From Candidatus Melainabacteria bacterium 17Bon1m (GTDB taxonomy: Bacteria > Cyanobacteriota > Vampirovibrionia > Obscuribacterales > Obscuribacteraceae): a DNA stretch of 64,000 nt. Below, in pieces: positions 14,854 to 29,587 of this stretch. Within the stretch, counting starts at the first letter, position 1; each line of letters opens with the position of its first letter. Position numbers and translations under genes: made by a program. The stretch is from assembly GCA_032128875.1 (NCBI GenBank), contig JAVLKG010000006.1, forward strand, positions 1 through 64,000, given 5' to 3'. The notes beneath the pieces are model-generated. The model made no database searches, was not told the origin of the DNA, and saw nothing but the letters and a program-made list of their open reading frames with translations.

Positions 14854-16122
14854 TTAGTCGGCGCTCGCCGGTGCTGTTTCTGCTGTCGAAAAACGGCTAG
14901 CGATGATGTCGCAAAGGTGCTCGGCAATCGCTCGCTTGGGCATGCGCGGCAGATTTTCTCTGCTGCCGTCGGCTGAAAGAATAACGACAGCATTGTCGTC
15001 GCTGCCAAAGCCGATATCCGGAACAGTGATGTCATTGCCGACAATTACATCGAGATTTTTGCGCTTAAGCTTCTGTGCTGCGTTGCTCAGCAATTCTTCG
15101 GATTCGGCTGCAAAGCCGATGATGAATTGATCGTCGGTCTTGACTCGTCCGAGCAAATCCAGAATATCGGGATTTTTCGTCAATTCGAGGGAGAAGTCTT
15201 CTTTGACCGATTTTTTGATCTTCTGATTAGAGAAGCCCAGCGGTCGGAAATCGGCTACAGCAGCGGTCATTACCAGAGCATCACAGCCGTCGAATTCTGC
15301 TTCGACTGTTTCTTGCATCTCTAAGGCTGTTTCTACTAGTAGAACGTTGTAGGCTCTGTCGACTTCGACTGTGGACACGAGCGTTACTTCAGCGCCACGA
15401 GCATAAGCCGCATCAGCCATGGCGATGCCCATTTTGCCCGAAGATCTGTTGCCGATGAAACGTACAGGATCAATTGGTTCTCTAGTGCCACCGGCGGTGA
15501 CAATGACGCGGCGGCCCGCCAGCGTGCGGTGCTCGAGAAGGCAAGCGGCGGCGGCAGCCACGATGGTTTCGACAGCAGCCATCTTGCCTGTTCCGAAATC
15601 ACCGCAAGCCAATTCGCCGTAGTCTGCGGCGATCAGGTCGTAGCGGTAGTGGTTTTGAAGAGTGGCAAGATTGTTTTGAGTGGCTGGGTGAGCAAGCATT
15701 TTCGGGTTCATCGCCGGTGCCAGCATGATTTTTGCATTGGAGGCGAGTATCATGGTAGTCAACAGGTCGTCGCACATTCCTGTTGCCATCTTGGCGATGA
15801 TGTCGGCTGTTGCCGGTGCGACCAGGATCAGATCTGCTTTCTTAGCTAACTCGATGTGCTCCGGACGCCAATCGGCTTGTGCTTGAAACTGCTCACAATG
15901 CGACGGATTGCGGGTAATTGTCGTCAGTGAAAGTTGGGTTACGAATTCGCGTGCGTTGGGAGTGAGCACTGCATGTACGTCCGCTCCTGCGCGCCTGAGC
16001 ATTGAGGCAATGTCGCATGCCTTGTATGCAGCAATGCCGCCCGCTACTCCCAAAATTATTGTTTTGCCGTGGAGAGGGTTAACCTCAGCAAAGTTGTTAT
16101 CGCGCTTCTTATTTCTTGGCAT
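14854..16122 (-). CDS. coaBC: Bifunctional phosphopantothenoylcysteine decarboxylase/ligase
   Basis: GGIAAYKA, APATAD, PAMN, TAGGTREPIDPVRFIGNRSSGKMG, GFAAE. Confidence 0.97.
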   Translation of the reverse strand: MPRNKKRDNNFAEVNPLHGKTIILGVAGGIAAYKACDIASMLRRAGADVHAVLTPNAREFVTQLSLTTITRNPSHCEQFQAQADWRPEHIELAKKADLILVAPATADIIAKMATGMCDDLLTTMILASNAKIMLAPAMNPKMLAHPATQNNLATLQNHYRYDLIAADYGELACGDFGTGKMAAVETIVAAAAACLLEHRTLAGRRVIVTAGGTREPIDPVRFIGNRSSGKMGIAMADAAYARGAEVTLVSTVEVDRAYNVLLVETALEMQETVEAEFDGCDALVMTAAVADFRPLGFSNQKIKKSVKEDFSLELTKNPDILDLLGRVKTDDQFIIGFAAESEELLSNAAQKLKRKNLDVIVGNDITVPDIGFGSDDNAVVILSADGSRENLPRMPKRAIAEHLCDIIASRFSTAETAPASAD

Positions 16123-16302
16123 ATTGCTGACTCTCCCGGGGTCATAAACCTCACCTGTATTATTATGTGACTATCGTGGATTCTTCGCTAGCCGCTTTAC
16201 TTCTCGGCTTGTTTAGATTTCGCGCTTTCGGCGCCTTTATGGTTCACAAAAAGAGCCGCTTTGCCGGACTGGCTCTGGTTCTAGCTTTCACAGGGAGAGC
16301 AA

Positions 16303-17889
16303 ATGGAAAAGTTTTACGTAACGACAGCCATCGACTACGTGAATGCGTCACCGCATATCGGTCATGCGTATGAAAAGATAGCCGCCGATGTTTTGGCTCG
16401 CTTTCACCGTATTCGAGGCAAGGATGTTTTCTTCCTGACTGGCGTCGATGAGCACGGTATCAAGGTAGAGCGCACGGCCGCTGCCGCAGGTAAGAGCCCG
16501 CAGGAATTTGTCGACGAGATGTCGGCGAAGTTCAAAGCAGCCTGGGAAAAATTGAATGTCGTTCCTGACCGTTTTATTCGCACGACTGAAGATGAGCATA
16601 AAAAGGTCGTGCAAGAGATGTTTCGCCGCATGCAAGAGAAAGGCGACATCTATAAATCTTCTTACACCGGTCACTATTGTGAAGGCTGCGAAGACTTTGT
16701 GCGTGAGCGCGATTTAGATGAGCAAGGCAATTGCCCCAATCACAAGAAGCCGCCGCGTCAAGTAAGCGAAGAAAACTATTTCTTCAAACTGAGCAAATAC
16801 AAAGATGCGATCCGCAAGTGGATGACAGAAGATCCTAGTCGCGTACAGCCGGACGGTCGCCGCAAGGAAGTTTTGAATCAGCTTGAAGATCCTGAAGTCA
16901 CAGACTTCAGCGTCTCACGCAGCAAGAATTCCCTGAAGTGGGGTATTCCTGTGCCGGGCGATGAAGATCAAGTCATTTATGTGTGGATTGATGCTCTGAC
17001 TAACTATTTCACAGGTGGTGGTGGGTTCGAGGGCAATGGCTATTGGCCTGCCACTCTGCATTTAGTTGGTAAGGACATCATCAAATTTCACTGCATTTAC
17101 TGGCCTGCAATGCTTATGGCTGCGGGTGTCGAATTGCCTGCAGGCGTTTTTGCGCACGGATTTATTACTGTCGAAGGACAGAAGATCAGTAAATCACTGG
17201 GCAACGTAATCGATCCGATTGCTCTGGTTGAGCAGTACGGCGCTGACGCGGTTCGTTACTCACTTTTCTCAGGTAGTGCTTTCGATCAAGACGGAGACTT
17301 CTCCGGCAAAGAATTGATCAGACGAGTGAATTCCGAATTGGCTAACAATGTGGGCAACCTGCTTAATCGCAGTTTGACTCTCGTCGATAAAAATTGCGGT
17401 GGAAAAGTTCCTGATTGCAAACCCGAAAATCTGGTTCGCAAGCAAGCAAATCTCATTCATGAAACTGTCGATGAGCACATGAAGAAGTACGATTTTTCCG
17501 GTGCCATCAACGCAATTTTGGCGCTTGTCGATCAGGCCAACAAATATATGAATGATGAGAAGCCCTGGACTTTGTTCAAAGAAGGGAAACAGAAAGAAGG
17601 GGAAGAAGTGCTATTCACCTGCTTGGAAGTGCTTCGCCGCACGGCCATGAACCTCTATCCTTTCACGCCTGAACTGGCGCAGAAGATGTGGTATCAACTC
17701 GGATACGATGACGAAGTCGGCAAGATCGGCGATTCGGTTAGAGACGATGGTTTCTTTGACTTGATTCCCGCTGGTCAGACAGTGCGCAATCAGGGTCCGA
17801 TATTCAAGCGTATTGAAGATGGCGATGGCGGTTCGGACGGCGACAAGGCTGGTTCGGAAGTAGCAAAGTCTGGAAAAGGCAAGAAATAG
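16303..17889 (+). CDS. metG: Methionine--tRNA ligase (short form, no C-terminal tRNA-binding appendix)
   Basis: FYVTTAIDYVN, HIGH, YVWIDAL, GKDIIKFH, KISKS. Confidence 0.97.
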   Translation: MEKFYVTTAIDYVNASPHIGHAYEKIAADVLARFHRIRGKDVFFLTGVDEHGIKVERTAAAAGKSPQEFVDEMSAKFKAAWEKLNVVPDRFIRTTEDEHKKVVQEMFRRMQEKGDIYKSSYTGHYCEGCEDFVRERDLDEQGNCPNHKKPPRQVSEENYFFKLSKYKDAIRKWMTEDPSRVQPDGRRKEVLNQLEDPEVTDFSVSRSKNSLKWGIPVPGDEDQVIYVWIDALTNYFTGGGGFEGNGYWPATLHLVGKDIIKFHCIYWPAMLMAAGVELPAGVFAHGFITVEGQKISKSLGNVIDPIALVEQYGADAVRYSLFSGSAFDQDGDFSGKELIRRVNSELANNVGNLLNRSLTLVDKNCGGKVPDCKPENLVRKQANLIHETVDEHMKKYDFSGAINAILALVDQANKYMNDEKPWTLFKEGKQKEGEEVLFTCLEVLRRTAMNLYPFTPELAQKMWYQLGYDDEVGKIGDSVRDDGFFDLIPAGQTVRNQGPIFKRIEDGDGGSDGDKAGSEVAKSGKGKK

Positions 17890-17926
17890 GCCCGATCCAA
17901 TCCACTTAGCCTCCATATCCTCTAAT

Positions 17927-18922
17927 ATGGTTGGGGGAGACTTAAGCGTGACCGAAGCAAATCCGCAGGCAGAAAATCAAACGGACGTTCAACGGGCTTC
18001 TATTGCACCCGCAGAAAAAGTTGGCTTGATTCTCAAATTGATTCGACCAAAACAATGGGCGAAAAATTTGATTGTTTTTGCACCTGCGCTTTTTTCTGGC
18101 AAAATTTTTGAACCTGCTACTTTGTCGGCTGCTTCTCTCTGCTTCGTTGCCTTTTGCATGTGCGCAAGCGCAGTTTATGTCGTCAACGATGTATTAGATT
18201 GCAAGTCCGATCGTTTGCATCCGAAAAAGAAAAACCGTCCGGTTGCTTCCGGAAAAATCAGTGTTCCTCTAGCGCTGTCGCTAGGTGTCATTTGCGCTGC
18301 AATTGCTCTATCGATTGGATTTCTTGTTCGACCAACAGTCGATGTTTTCTTGCTTGTGTATTTCGTCTTAATGATGTTCTATGCACTTGTTTTGAAACAT
18401 TATGTACTGCTCGACGTATTTGCAATCGCTGCGGGATTCGTATTGCGTGCAGCGGCAGGCGCTGCAGCCGCTGGAGTTGAATCATCCGGCTGGTTCTTAG
18501 CATGCACCTCATTTGGTGCCCTCTTCTTGGGGCTTGAAAAGCGACGCCAAGAAACAATGCTTTTGAAAAACAATGCTGCTTCGCACAGAAAAACTTTGAA
18601 TGCCTATTCACCGGAATTGGTAGACCGCATGGAAGCTGTGATTGTGCCAAGTCTGGTCACATGCTACGCCTTTTATACATTCCAGTCGTATCACGGTCAG
18701 TGGATGATGCTTACTCTTCCGTTTGTTCTTTATGGCGTGATGCGCTATCAAGTTTTGTCCGTCCGTTCGGATGAAACCGGCGCGCCCGATGAAGTTTTAT
18801 GGAAAGATCGCGGTATTCAAATCACGCTTTTGCTCTGGATCTTGACCAGTGCCGGTGTAGTTTACGACGTGATACCAAAATTCTTTCAGATGACTTCGAC
18901 CTTCTTGGACGGACTTAGATAG
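17927..18922 (+). CDS. UbiA-family prenyltransferase (decaprenyl-phosphate phosphoribosyltransferase-like)
   Basis: RPKQWAKNL, YVVNDVLD..DRLHPKK..RPVASG, multiple TM helices. Confidence 0.88.
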   Translation: MVGGDLSVTEANPQAENQTDVQRASIAPAEKVGLILKLIRPKQWAKNLIVFAPALFSGKIFEPATLSAASLCFVAFCMCASAVYVVNDVLDCKSDRLHPKKKNRPVASGKISVPLALSLGVICAAIALSIGFLVRPTVDVFLLVYFVLMMFYALVLKHYVLLDVFAIAAGFVLRAAAGAAAAGVESSGWFLACTSFGALFLGLEKRRQETMLLKNNAASHRKTLNAYSPELVDRMEAVIVPSLVTCYAFYTFQSYHGQWMMLTLPFVLYGVMRYQVLSVRSDETGAPDEVLWKDRGIQITLLLWILTSAGVVYDVIPKFFQMTSTFLDGLR

Positions 18923-18923
18923 T

Positions 18924-19424
18924 TTGAAAAACACAGCCGAGATCACTGTTCGCGCTGCTGAACTTATGGATGGCGACGCCGTCTGGTCAGTGATAGAACC
19001 TGTCATCAGAGCGGGCGAAACATATGCTCTCCCTCGTGATATGACACGGCTGGATGGACTTAAATACTGGTTTTCTGAAGAGCACGAAGTATTTGTCGCA
19101 TGCGAGGGCGACAAAATTTTAGGAACGTATTTCTTGAAGTCTAATCACTTGGGCGGTGGCTCACATGTTGCCAATGCCGGCTATATTACTGCCGCTAATG
19201 CAACGGGCAGAGGCGTAGCGAAGAAGATGCTGGACGACTCTCTGCAACGCGCCCTCGCGCGTGGCTTCAGTGCCATGCAATTCAATTTCGTCATCAGCTC
19301 TAATGAATCTGCAGTGAGGCTCTGGCAGAAAAACGGATTTGCAATCGTCGGAACGTTGCCGGGAGCTTTTCGCCATCCTCATCTTGGTTTCGTCGACGCC
19401 TATGTAATGTTCCGCAAGTTGTAG
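18924..19424 (+). CDS. GNAT-family N-acetyltransferase
   Basis: AGETYA, GGSHVANAGY, ATGRGVA motif A, MQFNFV..N..AV.LW..GF. Confidence 0.92.
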   Translation: MKNTAEITVRAAELMDGDAVWSVIEPVIRAGETYALPRDMTRLDGLKYWFSEEHEVFVACEGDKILGTYFLKSNHLGGGSHVANAGYITAANATGRGVAKKMLDDSLQRALARGFSAMQFNFVISSNESAVRLWQKNGFAIVGTLPGAFRHPHLGFVDAYVMFRKL

Positions 19425-19450
19425 GGGCGACGCCTTCGCCCGGCTTTTTT
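19421..19450 (+). repeat. GTAG-type REP-like palindrome, possibly also a terminator
   Basis: GTAG-GGGCGA-CGCCT-TCGCCC then a T run; overlaps the GNAT stop codon. Confidence 0.5.
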
Positions 19451-19499
19451 AAAACTATTTTCTGGCGCCCGTTTAATGTTCGGGGGATGTAAAAGGCAT

Positions 19500-19537
19500 A
19501 AAATGAACGTTGAACGATTTTGTTCAATGTTCATTTT
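19500..19537. promoter_or_regulatory. Palindromic operator, probably bound by the downstream TetR
   Basis: AAAATGAACGTTGAAC-GATTTT-GTTCAATGTTCATTTT: 16-bp arms with one mismatch, immediately before the GGAGG RBS of the P450. Confidence 0.7.
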
Positions 19538-19549
19538 GGAGGTCTGAAT

Positions 19550-20935
19550 ATGTCTGCTATGACTACCGCTCCAGCGGATCCCAAAACTGCAAAACCCATG
19601 CCTGTTGCTACAAGCCGTTCGGGTTTGACAGCGATTAAGCAGTTAAAAGCTGATCCCCTCAGCTTTTACATGGGAAACAGGGCTGATTATGGTGACTATG
19701 TACGAATCAAAAGCCTACCTGGATTCGATTTCTACACTTTGACCTACCCAACTGCAATTGAGCACGTTCTTCAAACCCACCAGAAAAACTTCCGCAAGCC
19801 AGACGTCTTTCTGAAGCCGACAATTCTACTTTTCGGCAATGGCATTTTTACATCCGAAGGAGATTTTTGGATGAAGCAAAGGCGGTTATCACAGCCCGCT
19901 TTTCATCGAAATCACATTGGAGCAATGGCGAAAGTTATCGTTGAATGCGTCGAGAAAACGTTGGCTTCATGGGACGCGAAGCCTGACGGCAGCCAGATCG
20001 ATTTACAGCATGAAATGGTGCATCTGACTCTCAGTGTGGCGGGGCGTACCTTATTTAGTACTGATTTGACTAATCATGCTACGGACGTCGGGCTTGCAGT
20101 CAGAGATGCATTTGAAGTTCTCAATCACAAGATGAATAACTATCCCTTTGTTTTTCCACTCTGGGTGCCGACCCAGGACAATAAGCAGTTCAATCGTGCC
20201 AAAGGAATTTTGGATTCCGTAATTACAAAAATTATTTCCGAGCGCAGAAAAGATTCACAAGTGCACCACGATTTTCTCGGCATGCTTATGAGTGCTAAAG
20301 ACGAAGAGTCTGGGCAAGGAATGTCTGATGAACAGCTGAAAGACGAGGTTTTGACTCTTCTGGTAGCTGGTCATGATACGGTAGCAGCAAGTCTGGCGTG
20401 GACGTGGATTATGCTGTCGAAACATCCTCACGTGCGAGCACAATTGCATGATGAATTGAAAAATGTGCTTAATGGAAGAACACCGGATCTGGCTGATAGT
20501 GAGCGCTTGACGTATACCAAAATGATCTTCGATGAAACTCTTCGACTCTATCCCCCTGCGTGGGGGCAACCGAGGCAATCAATCGATGAGGACGTTATCG
20601 ATGGATATTACTTGCCGAAGAATGCTTTTGTTTCTCTCAACCAATACACGACTCATCGACATCCGGAATTCTGGGAGAAGCCTGAAGAGTTTGATCCTGA
20701 GCGCTTCACACCCGATAAGGTAAAAGGGCGACCTCGCTTTTCCTACTTCCCATTTGGCGGTGGTGCACGCGTTTGCATAGGGCAAAATCTTGCACTGCTG
20801 GAAGCCCAACTTGCCATTGCGACTATCGCTCAGCGCTATCAGATTGATATTCTACCCGGACAAACAATCGTTCCGGATCCTACATTTACTCTGATTCCCA
20901 GAGGAATTATCTCTGCAACTTTAAAGCGGAGATAA
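19550..20935 (+). CDS. Cytochrome P450
   Basis: AGHDT I-helix, ETLR, FDPERF, FPFGGGARVCIG heme ligand; ATG 19550 after GGAGG. Confidence 0.97.
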   Translation: MSAMTTAPADPKTAKPMPVATSRSGLTAIKQLKADPLSFYMGNRADYGDYVRIKSLPGFDFYTLTYPTAIEHVLQTHQKNFRKPDVFLKPTILLFGNGIFTSEGDFWMKQRRLSQPAFHRNHIGAMAKVIVECVEKTLASWDAKPDGSQIDLQHEMVHLTLSVAGRTLFSTDLTNHATDVGLAVRDAFEVLNHKMNNYPFVFPLWVPTQDNKQFNRAKGILDSVITKIISERRKDSQVHHDFLGMLMSAKDEESGQGMSDEQLKDEVLTLLVAGHDTVAASLAWTWIMLSKHPHVRAQLHDELKNVLNGRTPDLADSERLTYTKMIFDETLRLYPPAWGQPRQSIDEDVIDGYYLPKNAFVSLNQYTTHRHPEFWEKPEEFDPERFTPDKVKGRPRFSYFPFGGGARVCIGQNLALLEAQLAIATIAQRYQIDILPGQTIVPDPTFTLIPRGIISATLKRR

Positions 20936-20940
20936 AACGC

Positions 20941-21543
20941 GTGGCACGAACAACCCTCTCTGATAGCTCCAAGGATCAAAAACGCGCAGAGATAATTTTG
21001 GCTGCAAGAAAGTTGTTCAAACGCTTTGGCGTCAAAAAGACGACGATGCGGGACATCGCTTCCGAAGCCGGTCTTGCTGTTGGTACACTCTATCTTTATT
21101 TTGAAAGTAGAGATGAAGTTGTTCTTGCCTGTGCCGAAGCTTTTGAACAAGTTCATTTGGAAGCCGCCAAATTGTCTCTGGAAGCATCAGGACCTCCAGC
21201 AGAGCGCCTCAAGAACTACATTATTGGGCGTTTTCTCGCTTCGGCGGAAACACGCACAAGCGACAGTCACGTCGCCGAAATCGCTCGCGCCGTAATTCGG
21301 GTTCGTCCGACACGATTGGAAGACGAGTCGAAAATCATGCAAGAAACTATTCTCGAACTATTCTCTCAAGGTGCTAAAGACGGCAGCTTCCGCATTGCTG
21401 ACCCGAACCGAGACATGATGATTTTTCTCTACTCCATCGCTTGGTTCTTTCCAGTTGAAAAATCTGAGTTCTTGCCGGAGCCAGACGAATCAGTGCTCGC
21501 CAAACTAATCGATTGGTTCATCGAAAAGTGGTCGGCAGCTTGA
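20941..21543 (+). CDS. TetR/AcrR-family transcriptional regulator
   Basis: IILAARKLF...TTMRDIASEAGLAVGTLYLYFESRDEV HTH. Confidence 0.95.
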   Translation: MARTTLSDSSKDQKRAEIILAARKLFKRFGVKKTTMRDIASEAGLAVGTLYLYFESRDEVVLACAEAFEQVHLEAAKLSLEASGPPAERLKNYIIGRFLASAETRTSDSHVAEIARAVIRVRPTRLEDESKIMQETILELFSQGAKDGSFRIADPNRDMMIFLYSIAWFFPVEKSEFLPEPDESVLAKLIDWFIEKWSAA

Positions 21544-21564
21544 GCTGGGGCAGCAATTGCCCAA

Positions 21565-23091
21565 TTAAGCGTTTGGTCTGTATGCAACTACTCTCTGGAA
21601 GCTTCTTCCGTTGAACACATTGGCGCTTTCAACAGTGATGCGACGCTTGCTTGAGCTGTTCTGAGCAACCATTCCATCTCCTGCATAAATCGCTGCATGT
21701 CCGGGCTGACTGCCGGAGCGATTACCGATGATGATGTCGCCTGGGCGCAGGTCTCTCATATCGACTTGCTGAAATCCACTGCGGCGCAAGCTGTTTTCCA
21801 ATCCCTGGCAACTGGTGTCTCGAATGTTCAGGTTGAACGTGTTTCTCAACGCTGCGCTCACGAACGTTGCACAGCCACGAGTCTCCGGCACGCGCGGATC
21901 GTATTCGCGAACCGAGCGACCTAGCATTCCTTGAATAGTGCCTGCCAAATTGTTCCAGTATTGATCGCCTCTTCCGCGACCATAGCGATCATATTGATCG
22001 TATCTGCCATAGCGATCGTATTGGTCCTGGCGTCCGTAACGGTCGTACTGGTCATAACGTCCGTAACGGTCATATTGACCGTATTGGTCGCGACCATAGC
22101 GGTCTCTGCCGTTTTGATTACCCCAGCCGTATTGGTCTAGGTCATACGGCCGCCCATACTGGTCACGACCTTGCTGCCAGCTTCTATCTTCGTAGCGGTA
22201 GCGCGGATCGCTATATTGATCACGTCCATACTGATTATGTCCGTAAGGGTCACGTCCGTACTGGTCCCGCCCATATCGATCCCAACCATACTGGTCTCTG
22301 CCATATGGGTCACGCCCCCAGTTGCCGCGATCGTAGCGGTCGTACTGACCCCACTGACCTTGTCTCTGGCGCTGCATCATTTGCATAATCAAGGCCAGGG
22401 CCATGCGCTGCATTTGTTGGCCGCGATAATTATCGTTCCATTGACCGTTGTAGCCGTCATAGCGTCCATATTGGTCGCCATAGCGATCGTTGTAGCGGTC
22501 ACGGCCCCATTGGCTGCCATTACCCCAGCCGTAACTGTCCGGCTGATAGGGTCTGCCATAGCTATCTCTATAGGTAGGAGTGCCGTAATTGTCATAGCGG
22601 TCATAGCCGCCATATCGGTCGTAGCCACGATTGTAGCTGTTGAAATTGTCGTAGTTCGTCCAGCCGTGACGTCCGCCATTGCCTAGATTGAGCTGCACAG
22701 GTCCAAGTTGCAAGCGAATGTTCGGACCATAGTTATAGTTGGCTCTGACTATGTCGTCATATCCGCCCCAATTCGATGCGTAGTTTGGATTGTCGCGCGG
22801 ATCGTAGCCCCGATTCGAGTCGTATGCGTCGTATTGCATACGTCTGTAGGTGGCTTCATCGACTCCGAGGCGCTCTCTGGACGGATAAATGACCATCCCA
22901 TTGTCGCCATTGAAATTGGACCTGGCGTAAATGCCGGGATCGCCCGAGAAATTGCCCATATCGGCATAAATGCCTGGGTCGATGTCTCGTCCGTTCATTG
23001 GTCGTCCGTTTGGACCCAGCAATACATCGCCCCATTGGGCTTGGTTCGTTTGGTACCCTGGGCTCGGGCCGTCATAGAATTCCCTGGACAT
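21565..23091 (-). CDS. Low-complexity Y/G/R/D/Q/N repeat protein with C-terminal NlpC/P60-superfamily (Cys-His) putative peptidoglycan hydrolase domain
   Basis: C-terminus has GCATFVSAAL...LRPGDIII...GHAAIYAGDG; the N-terminal roughly 375 aa consists of YGRDQ/YDRYGR-type repeats; no signal peptide. Confidence 0.8.
   Translation of the reverse strand: MSREFYDGPSPGYQTNQAQWGDVLLGPNGRPMNGRDIDPGIYADMGNFSGDPGIYARSNFNGDNGMVIYPSRERLGVDEATYRRMQYDAYDSNRGYDPRDNPNYASNWGGYDDIVRANYNYGPNIRLQLGPVQLNLGNGGRHGWTNYDNFNSYNRGYDRYGGYDRYDNYGTPTYRDSYGRPYQPDSYGWGNGSQWGRDRYNDRYGDQYGRYDGYNGQWNDNYRGQQMQRMALALIMQMMQRQRQGQWGQYDRYDRGNWGRDPYGRDQYGWDRYGRDQYGRDPYGHNQYGRDQYSDPRYRYEDRSWQQGRDQYGRPYDLDQYGWGNQNGRDRYGRDQYGQYDRYGRYDQYDRYGRQDQYDRYGRYDQYDRYGRGRGDQYWNNLAGTIQGMLGRSVREYDPRVPETRGCATFVSAALRNTFNLNIRDTSCQGLENSLRRSGFQQVDMRDLRPGDIIIGNRSGSQPGHAAIYAGDGMVAQNSSSKRRITVESANVFNGRSFQRVVAYRPNA
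21975..22330 (-). repeat. Intragenic tandem repeats (27-bp YDQYDRYGR units and 15-bp GRDQY units)
   Basis: Translation shows YDRYGRYDQYDRYGRQDQYDRYGRYDQYDRYGR and GRDPYGRDQYGWDRYGRDQYGRDPYGHNQYGRDQY. Confidence 0.9.
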
Positions 23092-23235
23092 ATTTCACTC
23101 GCGAAGTGGTTGGGCAGAATCTTTCGATTCCGGAAAACTCAAAAATTTTTCGTGCATTGGGTAACTTGAATATAGGTTAAATTGGCGCCCCTGAACCCCC
23201 GGTTTTCACCATCCTGTACGTGAAATCCACAAGAA

Positions 23236-24855
23236 ATGTCCTTAATTAAGGCGTTTTTGATGAAAGATCAGTTCCAAGTCCGCCGCAGCGACTATGAAAT
23301 CAGCTATCGAACCGTGCCTAAGTGGTTCGTGCCGGCAATTTCTGTGACCACCTTCAGCATCGGCATGCTGGCGGTATTCGGCAGTGCGTCTTATTTGCTG
23401 CCACTGGCACCGGCAGCCAGGCATATTCTGGGCTCGCCGGAATTGGTTTTAGAAACTTTCTTTCGCTGCATCGCTTTGCTCCTGCTTGGGTTTCTCACCT
23501 TTCTCCTTGCTGAAATTTGCCGCCACGACCGGCTGGTGATTTCCAAAGACGGGCTTTCGTTTCCAGTTTTTCTCGCGCCGGACTTACTCTTTCGCCGTAA
23601 GAGAAGTTGGGACGACATCGGCAATATCATGATCGGTGCCATGCTGATGCATGACAGGAAGGGCAGCTACGAGTACGAACTCGAAGAATCCAAAGACAAG
23701 CGCAAACTATTTATGTACTTCAAATCAGGCGGCCACGTTTGCCTGGATTTGACAAAAATACCCAAAAGAAATCAGGAGCGACTCTTCCAGGCTATCGAGT
23801 CCTGGTGCATAACCTGCCACCGTGCTCCGCAACCAACCCATATCAAAGGTGCGAAAAACTGGATTGAAGACTATTGTGCCGGGGAAACCAGCGGCAGCGC
23901 AAAGCGCAAAAATGCACAAGCAAGCAAAAAGCGAAATGCGGAATTTACTTACACTCGCTTGTGGGAAGAACAGTTGGAGTCCTATTTCTCCCACACCAAT
24001 TTCGTCCCACTCGAGCGAGGTGAAAAGATAGGCAACGAGCGCTTTTCGATTCTCATGCAGTTAGGCGCAGGCGGACTATCGGCAGTTTATCTTGCTGAAA
24101 AATCCAATAAAGATCTCGTTGTCATCAAAGAGTCTTCTTTACCTGCCACGGTCAGCGACACGCAGCGTCAAAAGGCCGAAGAGTTGTTCAAGCGCGAAGC
24201 CAAACTTTTGCTCAAACTTGACCACCCGCAGATTGCCAAAATATACGACCATTTTGTCGAGAGAGGTCGAGACTATTTGGCTCTGGAATTCATTCCCGGT
24301 CACACGCTACGACAGCTCGTCGCCAAACGCGGACCTCAAAGCGAGCAAATGTCCATCGAGCTGATTCGACAGTTGGCGCATGTTCTCGATTATATTCACG
24401 GTCAGTCCCCTTCCGTTTTGCATCGTGATATAAGTCCCGACAATCTGGTTCTTAAAGATGATGGACAGCTGGTAGTCATCGATTTTGGTGCAGCCAACGA
24501 AATCGTGGGCACCGCAACTGGTACCTTAATCGGAAAACAGGCTTACATGGCACCAGAGCAATTCAAAGGCAAACCGACAGTGCAGAGCGACATCTACGCG
24601 GTTGGTGCGACCCTGTATTTCCTTCTCACTGGAAAAGACCCCAAGCCTCTTTCGACATCGCGCGCGCAATTGGAAAGACCTTCCGTTTCGAATCCTGTAG
24701 ATGAACTGGTCGCCGCTTTGACAAACGTTGACGAGAAGAAACGCCTGAAATCTACTGGTGAATTGCTGGACGCCATTGAAAAAATCAAGCAAGTTGATCA
24801 GGCTGTTGCAAAAAGTGGCTCAAAGGCTCTGGATGCAGAAAGGCAGGATCACTGA
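23236..24855 (+). CDS. Ser/Thr protein kinase with N-terminal membrane domain
   Basis: Two TM helices, then GAGGLSAV, VVIKE, HRDISPDN, IDFG, YMAPE, SDIY. Confidence 0.93.
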   Translation: MSLIKAFLMKDQFQVRRSDYEISYRTVPKWFVPAISVTTFSIGMLAVFGSASYLLPLAPAARHILGSPELVLETFFRCIALLLLGFLTFLLAEICRHDRLVISKDGLSFPVFLAPDLLFRRKRSWDDIGNIMIGAMLMHDRKGSYEYELEESKDKRKLFMYFKSGGHVCLDLTKIPKRNQERLFQAIESWCITCHRAPQPTHIKGAKNWIEDYCAGETSGSAKRKNAQASKKRNAEFTYTRLWEEQLESYFSHTNFVPLERGEKIGNERFSILMQLGAGGLSAVYLAEKSNKDLVVIKESSLPATVSDTQRQKAEELFKREAKLLLKLDHPQIAKIYDHFVERGRDYLALEFIPGHTLRQLVAKRGPQSEQMSIELIRQLAHVLDYIHGQSPSVLHRDISPDNLVLKDDGQLVVIDFGAANEIVGTATGTLIGKQAYMAPEQFKGKPTVQSDIYAVGATLYFLLTGKDPKPLSTSRAQLERPSVSNPVDELVAALTNVDEKKRLKSTGELLDAIEKIKQVDQAVAKSGSKALDAERQDH

Positions 24856-26393
24856 TGGAAGAAGCCCCCAAGAACTTCCTTGCCAATCGTTTTTTCTTCT
24901 CCAAAGGCGAGCGCGCCTCGGATGAATATGATCAGTATTGGATTCGCTATAAACCCATGCGCGTTTTGAGAAAGCGATGGAAAACCGATACGGCCCTTGA
25001 ATCCGGCGTGAAGTTTTTCATTATTGCTGCGGTCATTCTTTCATTCTTATTGGGCGGACCTTTGCTTGGACTGGGTTTTCTGTGTAGTTTGCTGGGCGCC
25101 TTTCTCTTCTTTCGTCTGCGCCTTTTACTGTTTCCGACCCATATTGCTCTTACTGAAGACGGAATAACTTTTCACTGGTTGCGCTCATGGATGAACTATC
25201 AAAGCTGCTTGATTCCCTGGAGTAGCCTCTCTCATGTCAATTTGACGATGGCTAAGTTTGGCAAACACATTGAGCCGCGAGTAGAGTTCAACATTGTTGC
25301 TGCAAGTATGTCTTTGGCACAGCGATTTCCGTTTATCCTTCTTACGCCGGCTCTTGCCAGAGGCTGGCTTACGGACAGGGCAAAAGTGATTTTGCCACTG
25401 GATGGACTTGCTTCAAGTGACGACAGAAAGCGCTTACAATTCGGCTTTCAAAGATTTTTGCCAACCTACAGAGTCGATCCTAAGGTAAGCGATGAATTGC
25501 AATTGTCGCTCAGAGTGGAGAGTTATACGGATTTATGGCTGGGCGCGCTGTCGATGAATCGCAGTCGATTACGCACGGATACGCTGGCTAGTGGCACCCT
25601 GGTCAATCATGGTCGATACGAGATTGTCTCTGCAATTGGCTCGGGCGGGCAGTCCGTCGTCTATGCGGCTATTCAGAAAGAAATGTCACTGGATAAGCCT
25701 GTCGTCCTCAAGGAGTTTGTGTTGCCTTCCTACGCGGGAGTGAAGGTGCGCAAGCGAGTACTGGAGAACATCCAGCGAGAGTCGCAGATGCTCAAAAATT
25801 TGCACCATCCAAATATCGTCAAACTGCAAGATTTCTTTGTCGAGGATGAGAGGGCTTATCTGGTTTTAGAACAAATCAAAGGGCGCACATTGAAGGAACT
25901 TGTTGAAAGCGAAGGTCCGCTCAAAGAGCTAGATGCGCTCAACCTGGCTTTGCAAATGACATCAATTCTCGTATTTCTTCACGGGCGAAATCCGCAAGTC
26001 GTGCATTGCGACTTCACTCCAGATAATTTGATGCTCGGTCATGGAGATATTTTGAAACTGATTGACTTCAACGTTGCTCAACAACTGGAATCTATGTCCA
26101 CACATACTGTTGCAGGCAAGCACTCATACATTCCGCCCGAACAGTTTCAAGGTGAAACGACACCGCAATGCGATATTTATGCAATGGGGGCGACTCTCTA
26201 TTTCCTACTTACTGGCGAAGAGCCCGAGCCAATCTCCGTTTCTGTCGTAAAGGCTAAACGCAGTGACATTAGTGAAGAATTTTCCGCCATTGTTGAAAAG
26301 TCCACTGCCGTTGACGTGTCATACCGATATTTTGATTGCGAGGAGATTAAAAACGAGCTGGAAGCGCTCAGGCAAAAGCGCTATGGGCATTAA
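24855..26393 (+). CDS. Ser/Thr protein kinase (non-RD, DFN variant) with N-terminal membrane domain
   Basis: GSGGQSVV, VVLKE, HCDFTPDN, IDFN, YIPPE; TGATG overlap with the upstream kinase. Confidence 0.9.
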   Translation: MEEAPKNFLANRFFFSKGERASDEYDQYWIRYKPMRVLRKRWKTDTALESGVKFFIIAAVILSFLLGGPLLGLGFLCSLLGAFLFFRLRLLLFPTHIALTEDGITFHWLRSWMNYQSCLIPWSSLSHVNLTMAKFGKHIEPRVEFNIVAASMSLAQRFPFILLTPALARGWLTDRAKVILPLDGLASSDDRKRLQFGFQRFLPTYRVDPKVSDELQLSLRVESYTDLWLGALSMNRSRLRTDTLASGTLVNHGRYEIVSAIGSGGQSVVYAAIQKEMSLDKPVVLKEFVLPSYAGVKVRKRVLENIQRESQMLKNLHHPNIVKLQDFFVEDERAYLVLEQIKGRTLKELVESEGPLKELDALNLALQMTSILVFLHGRNPQVVHCDFTPDNLMLGHGDILKLIDFNVAQQLESMSTHTVAGKHSYIPPEQFQGETTPQCDIYAMGATLYFLLTGEEPEPISVSVVKAKRSDISEEFSAIVEKSTAVDVSYRYFDCEEIKNELEALRQKRYGH

Positions 26394-26553
26394 TCTGCAA
26401 GCCTAAACTTGGAGAAAACCTAGCTCGGCGCCAAACCTGCAAATCATTTGGTGGTGGGCGTTTGCGGCGTGGGCAATAGGTCGTATAAACAAGTCATCTT
26501 AACAAGATAGAACGTGAGCCTTCATCGGATGCAAACGGTGTTACACTTTTTTC

Positions 26554-27435
26554 GTGACTAAAGCTTTGATGATTAAGTTTCCGCCCCGGGCGTCACTCGG
26601 AAGTCTTTATACTTCCGAAGTCGCGTTTCCCCATATGCGTTTATGGGTCGGCGAAGCCCAGGGCGAGCGCGAATTGACTGTCCCGGAAGGGCGCATGCTT
26701 GGTATTGCTATGCGCAATCTGGATGCAACAACAATCAGCGATGCCGTGAAAGACGGTCTAAAACACTTGCAGTCGGTTGATTTGTCGACCAGCTATTTTT
26801 CCGAAAGCACTCTCAACTGGCTTCACTTTATTGAGGATTTGAAAGAGCTTCGCTTGGATTTTCTAAAGGTGCGAGCCGCCGAGTTGGTTGGGCTGGCTCC
26901 GCTTTCCTCGTTGAGCACTTTGTGGCTTACCGGTGCCGAACTTGGTGATAGCGAACTGGGAGCAGTTGCTACTGTCCAGGGTATCGAGAACTTGATCTTA
27001 AAATCAACACGAATCACAGATGCTGGACTGGTTCATATGCCGTCCATGAAAAAACTGACTCGGCTTCATTTGCCGTCGCAAATTACTGATCAAGGCATCG
27101 AACACCTGGCTGGCTGTAAGACTCTTGCGAAGCTCGATATCTCGCAAACTAAGATAACTGATAAAGCGCTAGGGCACCTCGAAAAAATCGAAAGCCTTGA
27201 AGAGCTGTATTTGAATGACACCACCCTTGGTGACCAAGCCTTGTCTGCGATTTCTCAACTGAAGAAATTGAAAGTGCTTTTCTTGTGCGGGACGAAACTG
27301 ACAGATTCCGGTCTGACTTTCCTCGAACAGCTTGAGCAGCTCGAACACCTCGAGTTGAGAGACACCAAAGTCTCTGAAATGGGTGTGCAGAGAGTCAGAT
27401 CGCGATTGGCGAACTGCGCAATTTTTGGACCATAG
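26554..27435 (+). CDS. Leucine-rich repeat protein (RI-like/bacterial LxxLxLxxTxITDxGL type)
   Basis: Repeated LxxLxL..T.ITD.GL..L units. Confidence 0.9.
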   Translation: MTKALMIKFPPRASLGSLYTSEVAFPHMRLWVGEAQGERELTVPEGRMLGIAMRNLDATTISDAVKDGLKHLQSVDLSTSYFSESTLNWLHFIEDLKELRLDFLKVRAAELVGLAPLSSLSTLWLTGAELGDSELGAVATVQGIENLILKSTRITDAGLVHMPSMKKLTRLHLPSQITDQGIEHLAGCKTLAKLDISQTKITDKALGHLEKIESLEELYLNDTTLGDQALSAISQLKKLKVLFLCGTKLTDSGLTFLEQLEQLEHLELRDTKVSEMGVQRVRSRLANCAIFGP

Positions 27436-27485
27436 TAAAAGCGATATTTTTGCCGAAAGTGCAGTCTGTTGAGTGGGCGCGAGCG

Positions 27486-27938
27486 CTACTTGATTTTCTT
27501 CATGTACTTTTCGACAATTTTGGCATTTTGGTTCAAACGATTATCAAATTCTTTGAACCCGGCATCGCCCAAGAATGCCTTAAGACCAAACGCGTATGCA
27601 GTCATGGCTCCGGCAACGGCTAAAAGAATCAAGCCTAATCGGCGACCCTGAACAATCCAGCCAAAGTTTCTGCGACCGGCTTTGAGGCGCAATTCGTTTT
27701 TTCTGGAAACTTCTTCAGTCTCGATGCCATACAACTCAGCGGCAGATTTCTTGGTCGGCGCCCAGTCCTGTCTTGCTTCATCATGGGGGATGAAGTGAGA
27801 GCAGTGTTCGCAGACAGTCCGGGGTTGCCTCGGATTCGAGTGCCCGCAACGAGGACAGTCAAGCATCTGAATTTGCACGTCGGCAAAGTCGATCTTGTAC
27901 TGCGAATCCGTCATTACCATGTTTTTGTCGAAAGCCAT
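27486..27938 (-). CDS. Small protein with zinc ribbon and C-terminal TM helix
   Basis: CPRCG...CEHC and hydrophobic LGLILLAVAGAMTAYAFGL. Confidence 0.7.
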   Translation of the reverse strand: MAFDKNMVMTDSQYKIDFADVQIQMLDCPRCGHSNPRQPRTVCEHCSHFIPHDEARQDWAPTKKSAAELYGIETEEVSRKNELRLKAGRRNFGWIVQGRRLGLILLAVAGAMTAYAFGLKAFLGDAGFKEFDNRLNQNAKIVEKYMKKIK

Positions 27939-28118
27939 GTCGAACCCTCGAAGAACCTAGTCTCGCCTGTTAGGGGCGTTATACCCCTTTCAGGCTATGT
28001 ATTCACCATATTAGCTCTTAACTCTTCCAGATCTAATATTTCAATTATTAGGATCTGAAGAAAGAGCCGTCAAGGGCTCTATAAAATGCCCCGAAAAGTA
28101 TGGGACCTCTCCGGAAGA

Positions 28119-29486
28119 CTAAAGTCCTGTTTGCTTTTCGGGTGCCGGCTCCAGAACGATTCGATTCGGTACTTTAGCTAACATATCCTCGGTCTCTCGG
28201 ATACTCGGGCTGCCTTCCGGCAGCAAACGCCTGCGCATGTCGAGCGAACGCTCAAGATACTCTCGAGCTTTGGTTTCATCGACCTTCAAGTAAGCTTCGC
28301 CGACTTGGAAAAGTGACAGGGCGATGTGCGGATGTGGCTCAAACACCAAATTTCGCATAGTCTCCAGGCATTCTTCCAGCTCTCTTTTCGTGTCGGTGCC
28401 TTTCTTGAGCTGTGCGTATGCTAGAGCTCTGCGAGCTTTTACATAGTCGGTGCCTCGATTCTGCGTTTTGCTTTCATAGTATTCGATCGCTTGCTGAGCT
28501 AGTTTTTCAGCTTTGTCATACTCCTTTTTCTTGACCATCAGTTGCGAGTGAAAAGTCAGCATCTCCGGATATAAGAGCGTCAACACGCGCTGTACGGCTG
28601 GATCTTTCACGATTTCGAAAGCTTGCTTCAACTCCAGCTCTGCCTCCGGGTCATTTTTCAGCAGTTTTATACGCGCTGAAAAATAACTGGCGAATGCGTC
28701 GTCTATGCTCTTTGTCTCAAGCGTCTGTTTTATCCAGATGTCTGTCTTGTTTGTTGAAACATCGTTGCGACTGGTTTCGATTGCCTTGTGTAGGCGCTCC
28801 AAATACTTTTCTGCATCTTCAATCCGTTCTAAATCGATAGAACCTTGGATGGCGCCGAGCAAAGTCGAGATATAGGCAGGGGTGCCTGTTCTGCCTGCGG
28901 CATCTAAATTGTCCAGATTGGCGCCCAGAAGCTCGAAGCCACGCGTGTAATTGCCGAGTTCTATGTAATTGCAAGCCAGGCTATTCGATTGGTATGCGCG
29001 ATTATGGCGATCGTCGGCGGAATTTCGGTACAAATACTCTGAGAATTTGACGGCTGTCTTCAAGTCGCCCTTTCTGATCGCCATGACCTGTAACTGACTG
29101 ACTTTCATGGGCAGCTCGTGACCCTCTGTTTGCGGCTGCCTGCCGGCTAGAATCTGTTCAATTTCATCTCCTATGCCGACGGTGGCCAATTCTTCGGCTT
29201 TATTCCATAGACCTTCTTCCTGGCAGCAGAAGGCAAAGTTCGACTGCCATATTGTTTTGACCGAAGTCCGGGTGAGAGTTATGGCAAAAATTCCCACCAG
29301 AGAACCCAGGAAGGCAAGCGGAGCATTGAGGTGAAATAAAAAGACGAGAATGGCGGTCATAATGGTCGCCATTACCAAAGCAAAGCCGCCCTGTACAAAG
29401 AGAATGAGTTTGATTGTCCGGCTGGTGGCCTTACTTTTGGCCCTCGCCAGTTTGAACGCATTTGCTTCAGCCGACTTTTCCGCCAT
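28119..29486 (-). CDS. Membrane-anchored TPR-like protein
   Basis: Two N-terminal TM helices, helical repeats, kinesin-light-chain-type 'HPHIALSLFQVGEAY...LERSLDMRRRLL'. Confidence 0.75.
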   Translation of the reverse strand: MAEKSAEANAFKLARAKSKATSRTIKLILFVQGGFALVMATIMTAILVFLFHLNAPLAFLGSLVGIFAITLTRTSVKTIWQSNFAFCCQEEGLWNKAEELATVGIGDEIEQILAGRQPQTEGHELPMKVSQLQVMAIRKGDLKTAVKFSEYLYRNSADDRHNRAYQSNSLACNYIELGNYTRGFELLGANLDNLDAAGRTGTPAYISTLLGAIQGSIDLERIEDAEKYLERLHKAIETSRNDVSTNKTDIWIKQTLETKSIDDAFASYFSARIKLLKNDPEAELELKQAFEIVKDPAVQRVLTLLYPEMLTFHSQLMVKKKEYDKAEKLAQQAIEYYESKTQNRGTDYVKARRALAYAQLKKGTDTKRELEECLETMRNLVFEPHPHIALSLFQVGEAYLKVDETKAREYLERSLDMRRRLLPEGSPSIRETEDMLAKVPNRIVLEPAPEKQTGL

Positions 29487-29587
29487 TGGAAAAACATCCT
29501 GTCTGAGACCGGAACTCCCTTTATATTCCCAGACTTAGCTTTCGCGAATTATTCGCTCGTTTGTGTTTTTCGATTGTTCTTGGACAG

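Follow-up and report, generated by a model that had tools for sequence, protein, structure and literature searches.

The NlpC/P60 (C40) DL-endopeptidases, which include MepS/Spr, LytE, CwlO, Acd24020 and RipA/B, use a catalytic Cys and His, and Tae1/Tse1 and Tae3 are small leaderless peptidoglycan (PG) amidases with the NlpC/P60 fold. The pneumococcal autolysin LytA is also a leaderless wall hydrolase, in which an aromatic-rich repeat region attaches the enzyme to the wall after its release from the cytoplasm (PMC3950521), and these repeats fold as a choline-binding β-β-solenoid (PMC4471590). ChiX and TtsA are signal-less endolysins of Gram-negative bacteria that cross the inner membrane through holins (PMC9527704). 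With regard to disordered proteins, the phase separation of FUS was reported to be driven by Tyr-Arg cation-π contacts (PMC5927716), for prion-like domains tyrosine was reported to be the stronger driver (10.1101/2021.01.01.425046), and the cephalopod reflectins, which are rich in Arg, aromatic residues and Met and free of Lys, undergo liquid-liquid phase separation (PMC11927725). Here, we analyzed a stretch of 64,000 nucleotides from Candidatus Melainabacteria bacterium 17Bon1m (contig JAVLKG010000006.1, positions 1 to 64,000; hereafter the window). The gene at 21565..23091 on its minus strand encodes a leaderless hydrolase in which a C-terminal NlpC/P60 domain is preceded by a tail of 375 residues that is predicted to be disordered. 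The catalytic-domain family is known; the selected Tyr/Arg/Asp-rich disordered tail, the leaderless and apparently order-specific subfamily, and the variant active-site motif are new. A sequence-only reading of this gene had regarded its architecture as undescribed, and our literature searches, which left supplements and subscription journals outside their scope, likewise found no description of a leaderless NlpC/P60 protein with a sticker tail.

The gene is a complete coding sequence of 508 aa with an ATG start and a TAA stop, and orthologues with 52-95% identity were found to occupy syntenic loci. A longer N-terminus is impossible, because the frame contains only 509 codons from stop to stop. 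As a whole, the protein contains 14% G, 13% R, 12% Y, 11% D, 8% Q and 8% N. Residues 1-375 were found to be free of Lys, as had been claimed from the sequence, and the single Lys of the protein (K482) lies within the catalytic domain; given the Lys frequency of 5.7% in the proteome, the probability of finding no Lys in 395 residues is approximately 1e-10. The compositional bias was ranked within a crude six-frame set of open reading frames (ORFs) of the genome. The combined share of Y, R, G, D, Q and N reached 0.83 in a 235-aa segment of the hydrolase, which was the top rank among 4497 ORFs of at least 235 aa (the runner-up reached 0.63), and a density of 22 Tyr per 100-aa segment was the top rank among 13435 ORFs of at least 100 aa.

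Residues 376-508 (21568..21966; all coordinates within the hydrolase gene refer to the minus strand) can be assigned with confidence to the NlpC/P60 (C40) papain-like cysteine peptidases, as the profile, the predicted fold and the catalytic residues agreed with the earlier assignment. When the C-terminal 117 aa were scanned alone, the Pfam family NLPC_P60 (PF00877) was matched with 34.2 bits against a cut-off of 23; the scan of the whole protein gave no match, presumably owing to masking of the domain by the composition-bias correction. The AlphaFold2 (AF2) model, calculated from an alignment of 21 sequences, showed predicted local distance difference test (pLDDT) values of approximately 81-91 for residues 381-508. 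Foldseek identified MepS with an E-value of 1.5e-6 and a target template modeling score of 0.72. The best VIA match was Acd24020 (7cfl), with a Z-score of 14.3 and a root mean square deviation of 2.9 for 119 aligned residues, followed by MepS (7v6s) with a Z-score of 14.2. Further VIA matches included LytE, CwlO, RipA/B, SagA and phage endolysins, as well as the YkfC-type peptidase 3h41 (Z-score 13.5) and the type VI secretion system (T6SS) effectors Tae3 (Z-score 12.1) and Tse1 (Z-score 11.7).

The hydrolase shares with the C40 DL-endopeptidases the fold (Z-scores of 12-14), the Pfam family and the catalytic Cys and His. Cys407 (codon 21871..21873) and His465 (codon 21697..21699), the predicted nucleophile and base, were invariant in two alignments of 21 and 11 sequences. 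In the profile-to-PDB alignment, Cys407 was positioned on the Cys of the DCSG motif and His465 on the catalytic His of Acd24020 (7cfl); the latter also aligned with the catalytic His of CwlO and RipC. Because both residues are invariant and aligned to catalytic residues, the domain looks catalytically competent. The GCATFVS, PGD and GHAAIY motifs were confirmed in the C-terminal region. Unlike the C40 DL-endopeptidases, which have a DCSG motif and His as the third catalytic residue, the hydrolase displays a variant active-site motif, GCA..VS followed by NNSS or QNSS. Position 477, which aligned with the third His of 7cfl and with an Asn in CwlO, is Q or N in most members (Asn in other subgroups), and the adjacent N478 is nearly invariant (Gln477-Asn478 codons, 21658..21663). 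A plausible arrangement is one in which this residue completes a Cys-His-Gln/Asn triad. By analogy with the nearest structures, which are PG hydrolases, and with the LysM-bearing relatives described below, PG stem peptides are the most likely substrate.

The hydrolase also differs from the C40 DL-endopeptidases in its remaining architecture: it has no signal peptide or lipobox and no LysM, SH3b or coiled-coil region, and contains the 375-aa tail instead. In the full-length AF2 run with the same 21-sequence alignment, pLDDT was below 50 over residues 1-375 and the tail showed no β-rich fold. Residues 1-391 matched none of the Pfam families at E<=10, including those of known wall-binding modules (LysM, SH3b, the choline-binding CW_binding_1, SPOR and PG_binding), and the tail gave no meaningful match to PDB sequences (best E 1.4). 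The N-terminal part of the disordered region is not repetitive (residues 1-140, 22672..23091) and was without a match in Pfam and PDB sequence searches. It includes conserved islands, namely an N-terminal MS.EFY.. motif and two copies of DPGIYA, and at residues 125-139 (22675..22719) a conserved Gly-rich, hairpin-like island, IRLQLGPVQLNLGNG, in which G130, G137 and G139 are nearly invariant and AF2 placed two short low-confidence strands (125-129 and 132-136). The strict form of this motif is rare, with 6 occurrences in the 13435 ORFs of the genome. It was considered as a feature in common with Sec-exported Tyr-rich proteins, and this idea was dropped, as only one of the six strict matches was such a protein.

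In the repeat core (residues 141-375), charged residues account for 31%, Y+W+F for 22.6%, G for 16% and Q+N for 18%. Its first Tyr/Arg/Asp/Gly repeat block (residues 141-219, 22435..22671) includes the array GYDRYGGYDRYD with a 3-aa unit, for which Tandem Repeats Finder gave a period of 9 nt with 3.9 copies (22591-22625). The second block (residues 247-375, 21967..22353) is composed of 5-aa GRDQY-type and 9-aa YDQYDRYGR-type tandem units, which were recovered with periods of 15 nt (5.4 copies, 22213-22293, residues 267-293) and 27 nt (2.3 copies, 22016-22077, residues 339-359), respectively. Both units had already been recognized in the sequence-only reading, as had the embedded Met/Ala/Leu/Gln-rich helix. 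Matching of the repeats at the DNA level was 68-82%, indicating that they are old and diverged. Residues 220-246 (22354..22434) form the sole long helix drawn by AF2 in the low-complexity region (LCR), with low pLDDT. In this helix, Q225, Q226, R229, M230, M236-M238 and Q240-Q246 were invariant across five genus-level orthologues, and the relatives P0013 and P0014 also carry a comparable Met/Gln helix.

The residues of the tail are arranged in a non-random manner. The net charge is 0, with 51 R against 47 D and 4 E, and R/(R+K) is 1.0; the aromatic residues comprise 56 Y, 11 W and 4 F in 375 aa. The charge segregation was 0.0227, compared with 0.0545 ± 0.0094 in shuffled sequences, and since none of 2000 shuffles was as low, the charges are over-mixed. 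No adjacent aromatic pairs were present, whereas 11.7 were expected (0 of 5000 shuffles reached zero), and outside the helix the standard deviation of the gaps between aromatic residues was 1.38 compared with 3.33 by chance (0 of 5000 shuffles as low). At the level of short words, we counted 16 RY, 12 YGR, 3 GRY and no Lys.

Additionally, the tail was found to be under selection. Between the hydrolase and its closest orthologue, the ratio of nonsynonymous to synonymous substitution rates (dN/dS) was 0.047 for 370 tail codons (dS 0.44) and 0.025 for 133 catalytic codons (dS 0.65); for the next orthologue, the values were 0.033 and 0.041, respectively, with saturated dS. Close orthologues differ in tail length by indels of 5 and 7 aa as well as other sizes, and across genera the Tyr/Arg/Asp/Gly/Gln/Asn composition was retained in close and distant orthologues while the sequence drifted, with the N-terminus, the Gly-rich block 125-139, the Met/Gln helix and an RDQYGRPYD.DQYG block persisting as islands. 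The survey of homologues bore out that all close members retain a Tyr-rich, Lys-poor tail. The low dN/dS, the zero net charge, the mixed charges, the non-adjacent aromatic residues, the composition kept across genera and the scarcity of Lys in the relatives together show that the tail is a functional module under strong purifying selection and not a filler or spacer. Low-complexity repeats do open several long frames on both strands here, and one could imagine that the repeats generated the frame or that a short NlpC/P60 gene was spuriously extended. The dN/dS of the tail effectively refutes such an artefact. The start and the architecture are also conserved in orthologues of several genera, and a search of proteins of 30-278 aa for shorter stand-alone forms gave nothing beyond one 120-aa fragment.

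Predicted disorder, evenly spaced aromatic residues, Arg in place of Lys and a net charge of approximately zero are features of sticker-and-spacer intrinsically disordered regions. The tail is accordingly modeled as an intrinsically disordered Tyr/Arg 'sticker' polymer that is exactly neutral in charge, lacks Lys and contains one Met-rich helix, and the sticker-type character that had been proposed from the sequence alone was strengthened by the shuffling statistics. The tail resembles the low-complexity domains of the FET family (FUS) in its richness in Tyr and Arg, its Gly/Gln/Asn spacers, its even aromatic spacing and its near-zero net charge, and its helix can be likened to that of TDP-43, in which a Met-rich hydrophobic helix lies within a disordered region. 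Unlike in FUS-type domains, Asp is as abundant as Arg, giving a strictly alternating polyampholyte; moreover, the hydrolase is bacterial, is fused to a catalytic domain rather than accompanied by an RNA-binding domain, and has no homology to these proteins. Reflectins are cationic and condense upon charge neutralization, whereas the tail is already neutral through Asp; they have no sequence homology with the tail and occur in another context, and the Met residues of the tail are confined to one helix. Judged from these features of the sequence, condensate behavior of the tail is plausible.

A conversion of the tail to a cross-β state that stores or inactivates the enzyme, as in a prion or functional amyloid, was also considered, as the sequence-only reading had named the region prion-like. 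The tail is rich in Tyr, Gln, Asn and Gly with short oligopeptide repeats, and tails with a truly prion-like flavor are present in the relatives P0036 (25% Asn) and P0014 (38% Gln). However, prion-like domains are charge-poor, and the core at residues 141-375 is 31% charged with a Q+N content of only 18%. The maximal mixing of its charges and the absence of neighboring aromatic residues are features linked to liquid-like rather than solid assemblies, and AF2 showed no β-rich structure. The prion-like label is therefore poorly supported for this protein, and we consider an amyloid tail very improbable.

To describe the range of the subfamily, several collections were searched. A word-indexed search returned 23 relatives with 99-36% identity, the few named ones being labeled Melainabacteria or soil-metagenome 'CYA'. 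An exhaustive search with the catalytic-domain profile retrieved 1394 proteins at E<=1e-3, of which 156 reached E<=1e-10 and 61 reached E<=1e-30. Among the species-representative genomes of the host's own family, 25 of 36 matched at E<=1e-5, and 19 were orthologue-grade (E<=1e-16); none of the 24 species-representative genomes from eight other families of the same class matched the profile. A collection of named genomes contained 23 loci with a near-full-length domain match, all in metagenome-assembled genomes, which were labeled Melainabacteria, Obscuribacterales or Obscuribacteraceae (14), 'Cyanobacteria bacterium' (4), Drouetiella (2), 'Proteobacteria bacterium' (1) or 'bacterium' (2); at the remaining 20 loci, the match was partial and fell on ordinary NlpC/P60 genes from Actinobacteria and Firmicutes. 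One cluster member was named Candidatus Obscuribacterales. The genomes are all metagenome-assembled, and some have doubtful bin labels. The subfamily appears to be confined to the Obscuribacterales, which are non-photosynthetic relatives of cyanobacteria.

The N-terminal regions of the relatives were surveyed in 79 of the best 88 rows of the profile search, of which 77 had an N-terminal region of at least 30 aa; nine rows were left out as multi-domain proteins or fragments (P0066, P0080, P0087, P0088, P0095, P0098, P0100, P0101 and P0104). One of these, P0066 (1183 aa), consists of nine tandem canonical NlpC/P60 domains with a Pfam total of 707 bits. Lys made up no more than 1% of the N-terminal region in 47 of the 54 closest representatives (E<=5.6e-34), compared with 5.7% in the proteome. 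The tails occurred in several flavors, being R/D/Y-rich in the window protein, N/Y/P-rich in P0036 and Q-rich in P0014, and all of them were Tyr-bearing and Lys-poor. As a separate observation, the motif [IV]P.WA.[ED]YA was found near residue 25 in 7 of 99 family proteins (P0035, P0036, P0044, P0046, P0047, P0048 and P0060); its looser regular expression matched 7 of 5367 genome ORFs, and the window protein has just QWGDV at this place. One subgroup might use this motif for docking or export.

None of the 77 representatives had a signal-peptide-like N-terminus, as the maximum 15-aa hydropathy in the first 60 aa did not exceed 1.53; by the same heuristic, six signal-peptide proteins of the genome scored 2.10-2.69. 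For the window protein, this measure and the Pfam scan were in line with the claim that Sec/Tat signals and LysM/SH3 domains are absent. A classic signal peptide is present in the one canonical DCSG-type NlpC/P60 protein of the genome (284 aa, contig C2). In contrast, a second subfamily member in the same genome (L068, C7:296177-298357, plus strand; 727 aa) is leaderless and carries GCA..VS and NNSS behind an N-terminal region that is not of low complexity; it matched Amidase_5 with 21.4 bits. The lack of a signal therefore characterizes the subfamily and cannot be attributed to the organism or to gene calling. In two distant members that are equally leaderless, P0089 and P0093, the N-terminal slot is occupied by LysM. 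LysM is a PG-binding module without a polymeric ligand in the cytoplasm, and its presence on leaderless members provides the strongest indirect support for an action of the subfamily on PG that it reaches without Sec. Several members also matched Amidase_5, a phage PG-hydrolase family, and one (P0081) contained an RHS repeat.

The genomic position of the gene was compared in ten fetched loci. CoaBC and MetRS, followed by the hydrolase gene, were present in nine of them, the exception (L024) being a 5.8-kb contig with a paralogue type. The downstream neighbor is a convergent TetR or MetRS gene. On the divergent side, an intergenic region of 144 nt (23092..23235) is common to the hydrolase gene and a kinase/leucine-rich repeat (LRR) gene set; a consensus scan for promoters and terminators called no site, including sigma-70-like ones, on the strand of the hydrolase gene. 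An optional pair of membrane-anchored Ser/Thr kinases was present in five of the ten loci. The gene of a 293-aa leaderless LRR protein (26554..27435, plus strand; Pfam LRR_4/LRR_8) lay on the divergent side in eight of the ten loci and adjoined the hydrolase gene in 11 genomes of 7 genera. Since two genomes, G021 (92% complete) and G036 (95% complete), have the LRR gene without a hydrolase match, the link is suggestive but not strict, and the LRR protein is a possible partner of the hydrolase.

No close relatives were found in 50,697 phage and 72,556 plasmid records; weak partial NlpC/P60 matches occurred in three phage and five plasmid records, all below 60% identity, and PHROGs matches of the hydrolase were limited to NlpC/P60-bearing 'minor tail protein' families. 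A phage or plasmid origin was rejected. The best match, a Ralstonia 'peptidase P60', proved to be an ordinary gene that neighbors a peptide ABC transporter. In the 93%-complete genome, FlhA (the flagellar and type III secretion system gate), TssC (the T6SS sheath, PF05943), the sheath of phages or contractile injection systems, and VirB4 (the type IV secretion system ATPase) were not found. No immunity-like gene was present downstream; the flanks consist of the TetR, kinase and LRR genes, and no small signal-bearing ORF lies downstream. The fixed synteny across seven genera and the absence of an immunity gene, delivery markers and phage or plasmid relatives point to a vertically inherited core gene, not a mobile toxin cassette.

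These data bear directly on the suggestion, also made in the earlier reading, that the protein is a toxin. An interbacterial or predatory effector would combine a C-terminal toxin domain with a variable N-terminal delivery region, as in polymorphic toxins and T6SS amidases, and the catalytic domain is indeed always C-terminal behind variable N-terminal regions, in a leaderless and Lys-poor family with an RHS repeat in the distant P0081 and a fold like those of Tae3 and Tse1. However, the similarity to Tae proteins does not exceed that to housekeeping hydrolases and, unlike the Tae effectors, the hydrolase has neither a T6SS sheath gene found in its genome nor an adjacent immunity gene, and it occupies a core-genome position beside CoaBC/MetRS with convergent TetR or MetRS downstream. 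The toxin label is thus poorly supported, and we consider such a role improbable.

In a further explanation, the hydrolase would be the effector of a phage-defence (abortive-lysis) module with the two kinases and the LRR protein. The kinases matched the PADLOC PD-T4-6 kinase models with up to 197 bits, LRR proteins are frequent sensors, and the genes are arranged divergently. Nevertheless, the PADLOC matches concern the generic kinase domain, and the hydrolase and the LRR protein were unmatched by PADLOC. The kinases are missing from four of the nine syntenic orthologue loci (L015 and L021-L023), including the closest genome (G011), and the locus is a fixed core position rather than a variable island. 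This role is thus also very improbable.

Taken together, we propose, with about even confidence for and against, that the protein is a vertically inherited, leaderless PG-type hydrolase whose tail is a multivalent association module and which reaches the wall by a non-Sec route. The position of the tail is the one that is occupied in ordinary wall hydrolases by LysM, SH3b or choline-binding repeats, and for this reason we infer a targeting or retention role, in which it probably binds itself and/or a wall polymer. Many weak contacts (Tyr-Arg, Tyr-Tyr and Tyr/Arg/Asp-glycan) would concentrate or retain the enzyme through self-association, wall-polymer binding or both. As no Sec/Tat signal was present in the hydrolase or in any relative examined, the enzyme would be made and accumulated in the cytoplasm and would meet the wall by holin-type passage or by release on membrane damage or lysis. 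That the whole subfamily is leaderless while two members carry LysM makes non-Sec export more plausible.

Two described systems are similar to this proposal in part. LytA is likewise a leaderless wall hydrolase with aromatic-rich repeats outside the catalytic part, but it is an Amidase_2 enzyme of a Gram-positive host, while the hydrolase described here has repeats of 3-9 aa that are predicted to be disordered and a host that is presumably diderm. ChiX and TtsA ('type 10 secretion') are likewise signal-less murein hydrolases, which are used without lysis and cross by a non-Sec route. They differ in being linked genetically to holin and cargo genes and in having no long disordered tail; neither a holin nor a cargo gene was recognized at the hydrolase locus.

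A strictly cytoplasmic enzyme is the principal alternative, although we consider it rather doubtful. Such an enzyme would cleave either soluble compounds (for example recycled murein peptides, UDP-MurNAc-peptides or another γ-glutamyl/amide compound) or a protein, and its tail would scaffold a cytoplasmic assembly, possibly with the LRR neighbor. The uniformly leaderless representatives, the lack of any secretion or injection marker found, the non-canonical Cys motif and third residue, and the YkfC-type recycling peptidase among the structural matches are all in agreement with this explanation. Against it stand the LysM modules on two leaderless members, the Amidase_5 matches of several members and the wall hydrolases as best structural matches, and it leaves unexplained why a recycling enzyme would need a selected tail of 375 aa.

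Several observations weigh against the proposal of a non-Sec wall hydrolase. The third catalytic residue is Gln/Asn rather than His and the Cys motif is GCA rather than DCSG, and the substrate specificity may therefore depart from that of canonical DL-endopeptidases. The locus contains no recognized holin or other export partner, and the LRR and kinase neighbors are leaderless too, which fits a purely cytoplasmic role equally well. The genome contains nine M23 peptidase matches, and a housekeeping need for the hydrolase is not evident. Tandem repetition alone accounts for part of the regular aromatic spacing. Finally, three runs filed as RNA-Seq (X2-X4) assembled positions 16000-30000 of the window in single contigs of 16-50 kb with flat depth; the runs seem to include this organism's genomic DNA and are uninformative on transcription, because the depth is flat across genes, as in the DNA run of the same sample.

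The surroundings of the gene showed additional features. The kinase genes (23236..24855 and 24855..26393, plus strand) are in tandem, and their products have an N-terminal region with two transmembrane helices. The LRR protein contains a strongly conserved N-terminal region of 60 aa with the pattern FP.R.SLGSLY...FPH.R.WVGEAQG, and the protein is limited to the taxonomic family of the hydrolase. Between MetRS and the hydrolase gene, a block at 17927..21543 (plus strand) encodes a UbiA prenyltransferase, a GNAT acetyltransferase, a cytochrome P450 and TetR; this block is genus-specific and is not present in the syntenic loci of other genera. At 27486..27938 (minus strand), an ORF of 150 aa has a zinc-ribbon-like CxxC...CxxC N-terminus and one C-terminal transmembrane helix; its conservation is limited to the genus, and the searches gave no match in Pfam and a weak PHROG match of unknown function.

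Other low-complexity proteins were also observed in the genome. Small Tyr/Asn/Gly/Arg-rich proteins with a Sec signal are encoded at C5:193851-194291(-), C15:21214-21957(+), C3:163474-164181(-), C4:449026-449703(+) and C4:167956-168351(+) of the host genome (G000). The mature part of the C5 protein (147 aa) is free of Lys, and in the protein at C4:167956 a Y/N/G stretch comes after a Met/Gln-rich helix. These proteins suggest that Tyr-rich LCRs form a lineage-wide vocabulary among envelope proteins. A leaderless R/D/Y/N-rich protein of 395 aa without a Pfam match (L070, C11:148608-149792, plus strand) begins with MSTGDYDSRP..., which resembles the N-terminus of the hydrolase family. Giant ORFs of 3331-7469 aa were located at C24:61-22467(+), C26:3-17744(-), C21:887-15820(+), C25 (two ORFs) and C10:172182-184142(-). 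They are rich in Thr, Gly, Ala, Ser and Asn, include Lys-free runs of up to 2150 aa and are probably adhesin-like surface proteins. The giant ORF on C10 (3987 aa) has no Pfam match, and its VHVGLGPVRIDFGGG block resembles the hairpin island of the hydrolase. Elsewhere in the genome, 29 of 3349 ORFs contain long Lys-free stretches; these were examined as possible relatives and rejected, since most are spurious frames on the antisense strand or giant Thr/Gly-rich proteins.

Wall hydrolases are dangerous enzymes, and their restraint and aiming are a central question of envelope biology; the known controls act through folded binding modules, inhibitor proteins or the regulation of export. The uncultured order described here retains a hydrolase subfamily without these known controls and with a selected disordered tail written in the grammar of phase separation, which raises the puzzle of how a leaderless hydrolase reaches its substrate in a presumably diderm bacterium without a recognized non-Sec machine. 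Tentatively, and as a possibility that we rate well short of even, a sticker-and-spacer disordered domain could govern how this hydrolase is stored, targeted or activated, which would be a first among bacterial wall hydrolases and a lineage-wide trait of the Obscuribacterales. A cytoplasmic condensate might keep the leaderless lysin inert until its release, or the tail might serve as a 'disordered lectin', a multivalent binder of wall glycans that replaces folded modules such as LysM. In either case, the sticker-tail solution would be tuned by flavor (R/D/Y, N/Y/P or Q-rich), with Tyr always kept and Lys excluded. If the tail does control storage or targeting, control by condensates or 'fuzzy binding' would extend to the bacterial cell wall, and a compact, sequence-encoded module (Tyr/Arg/Asp, no Lys) would become available for experiments and engineering.

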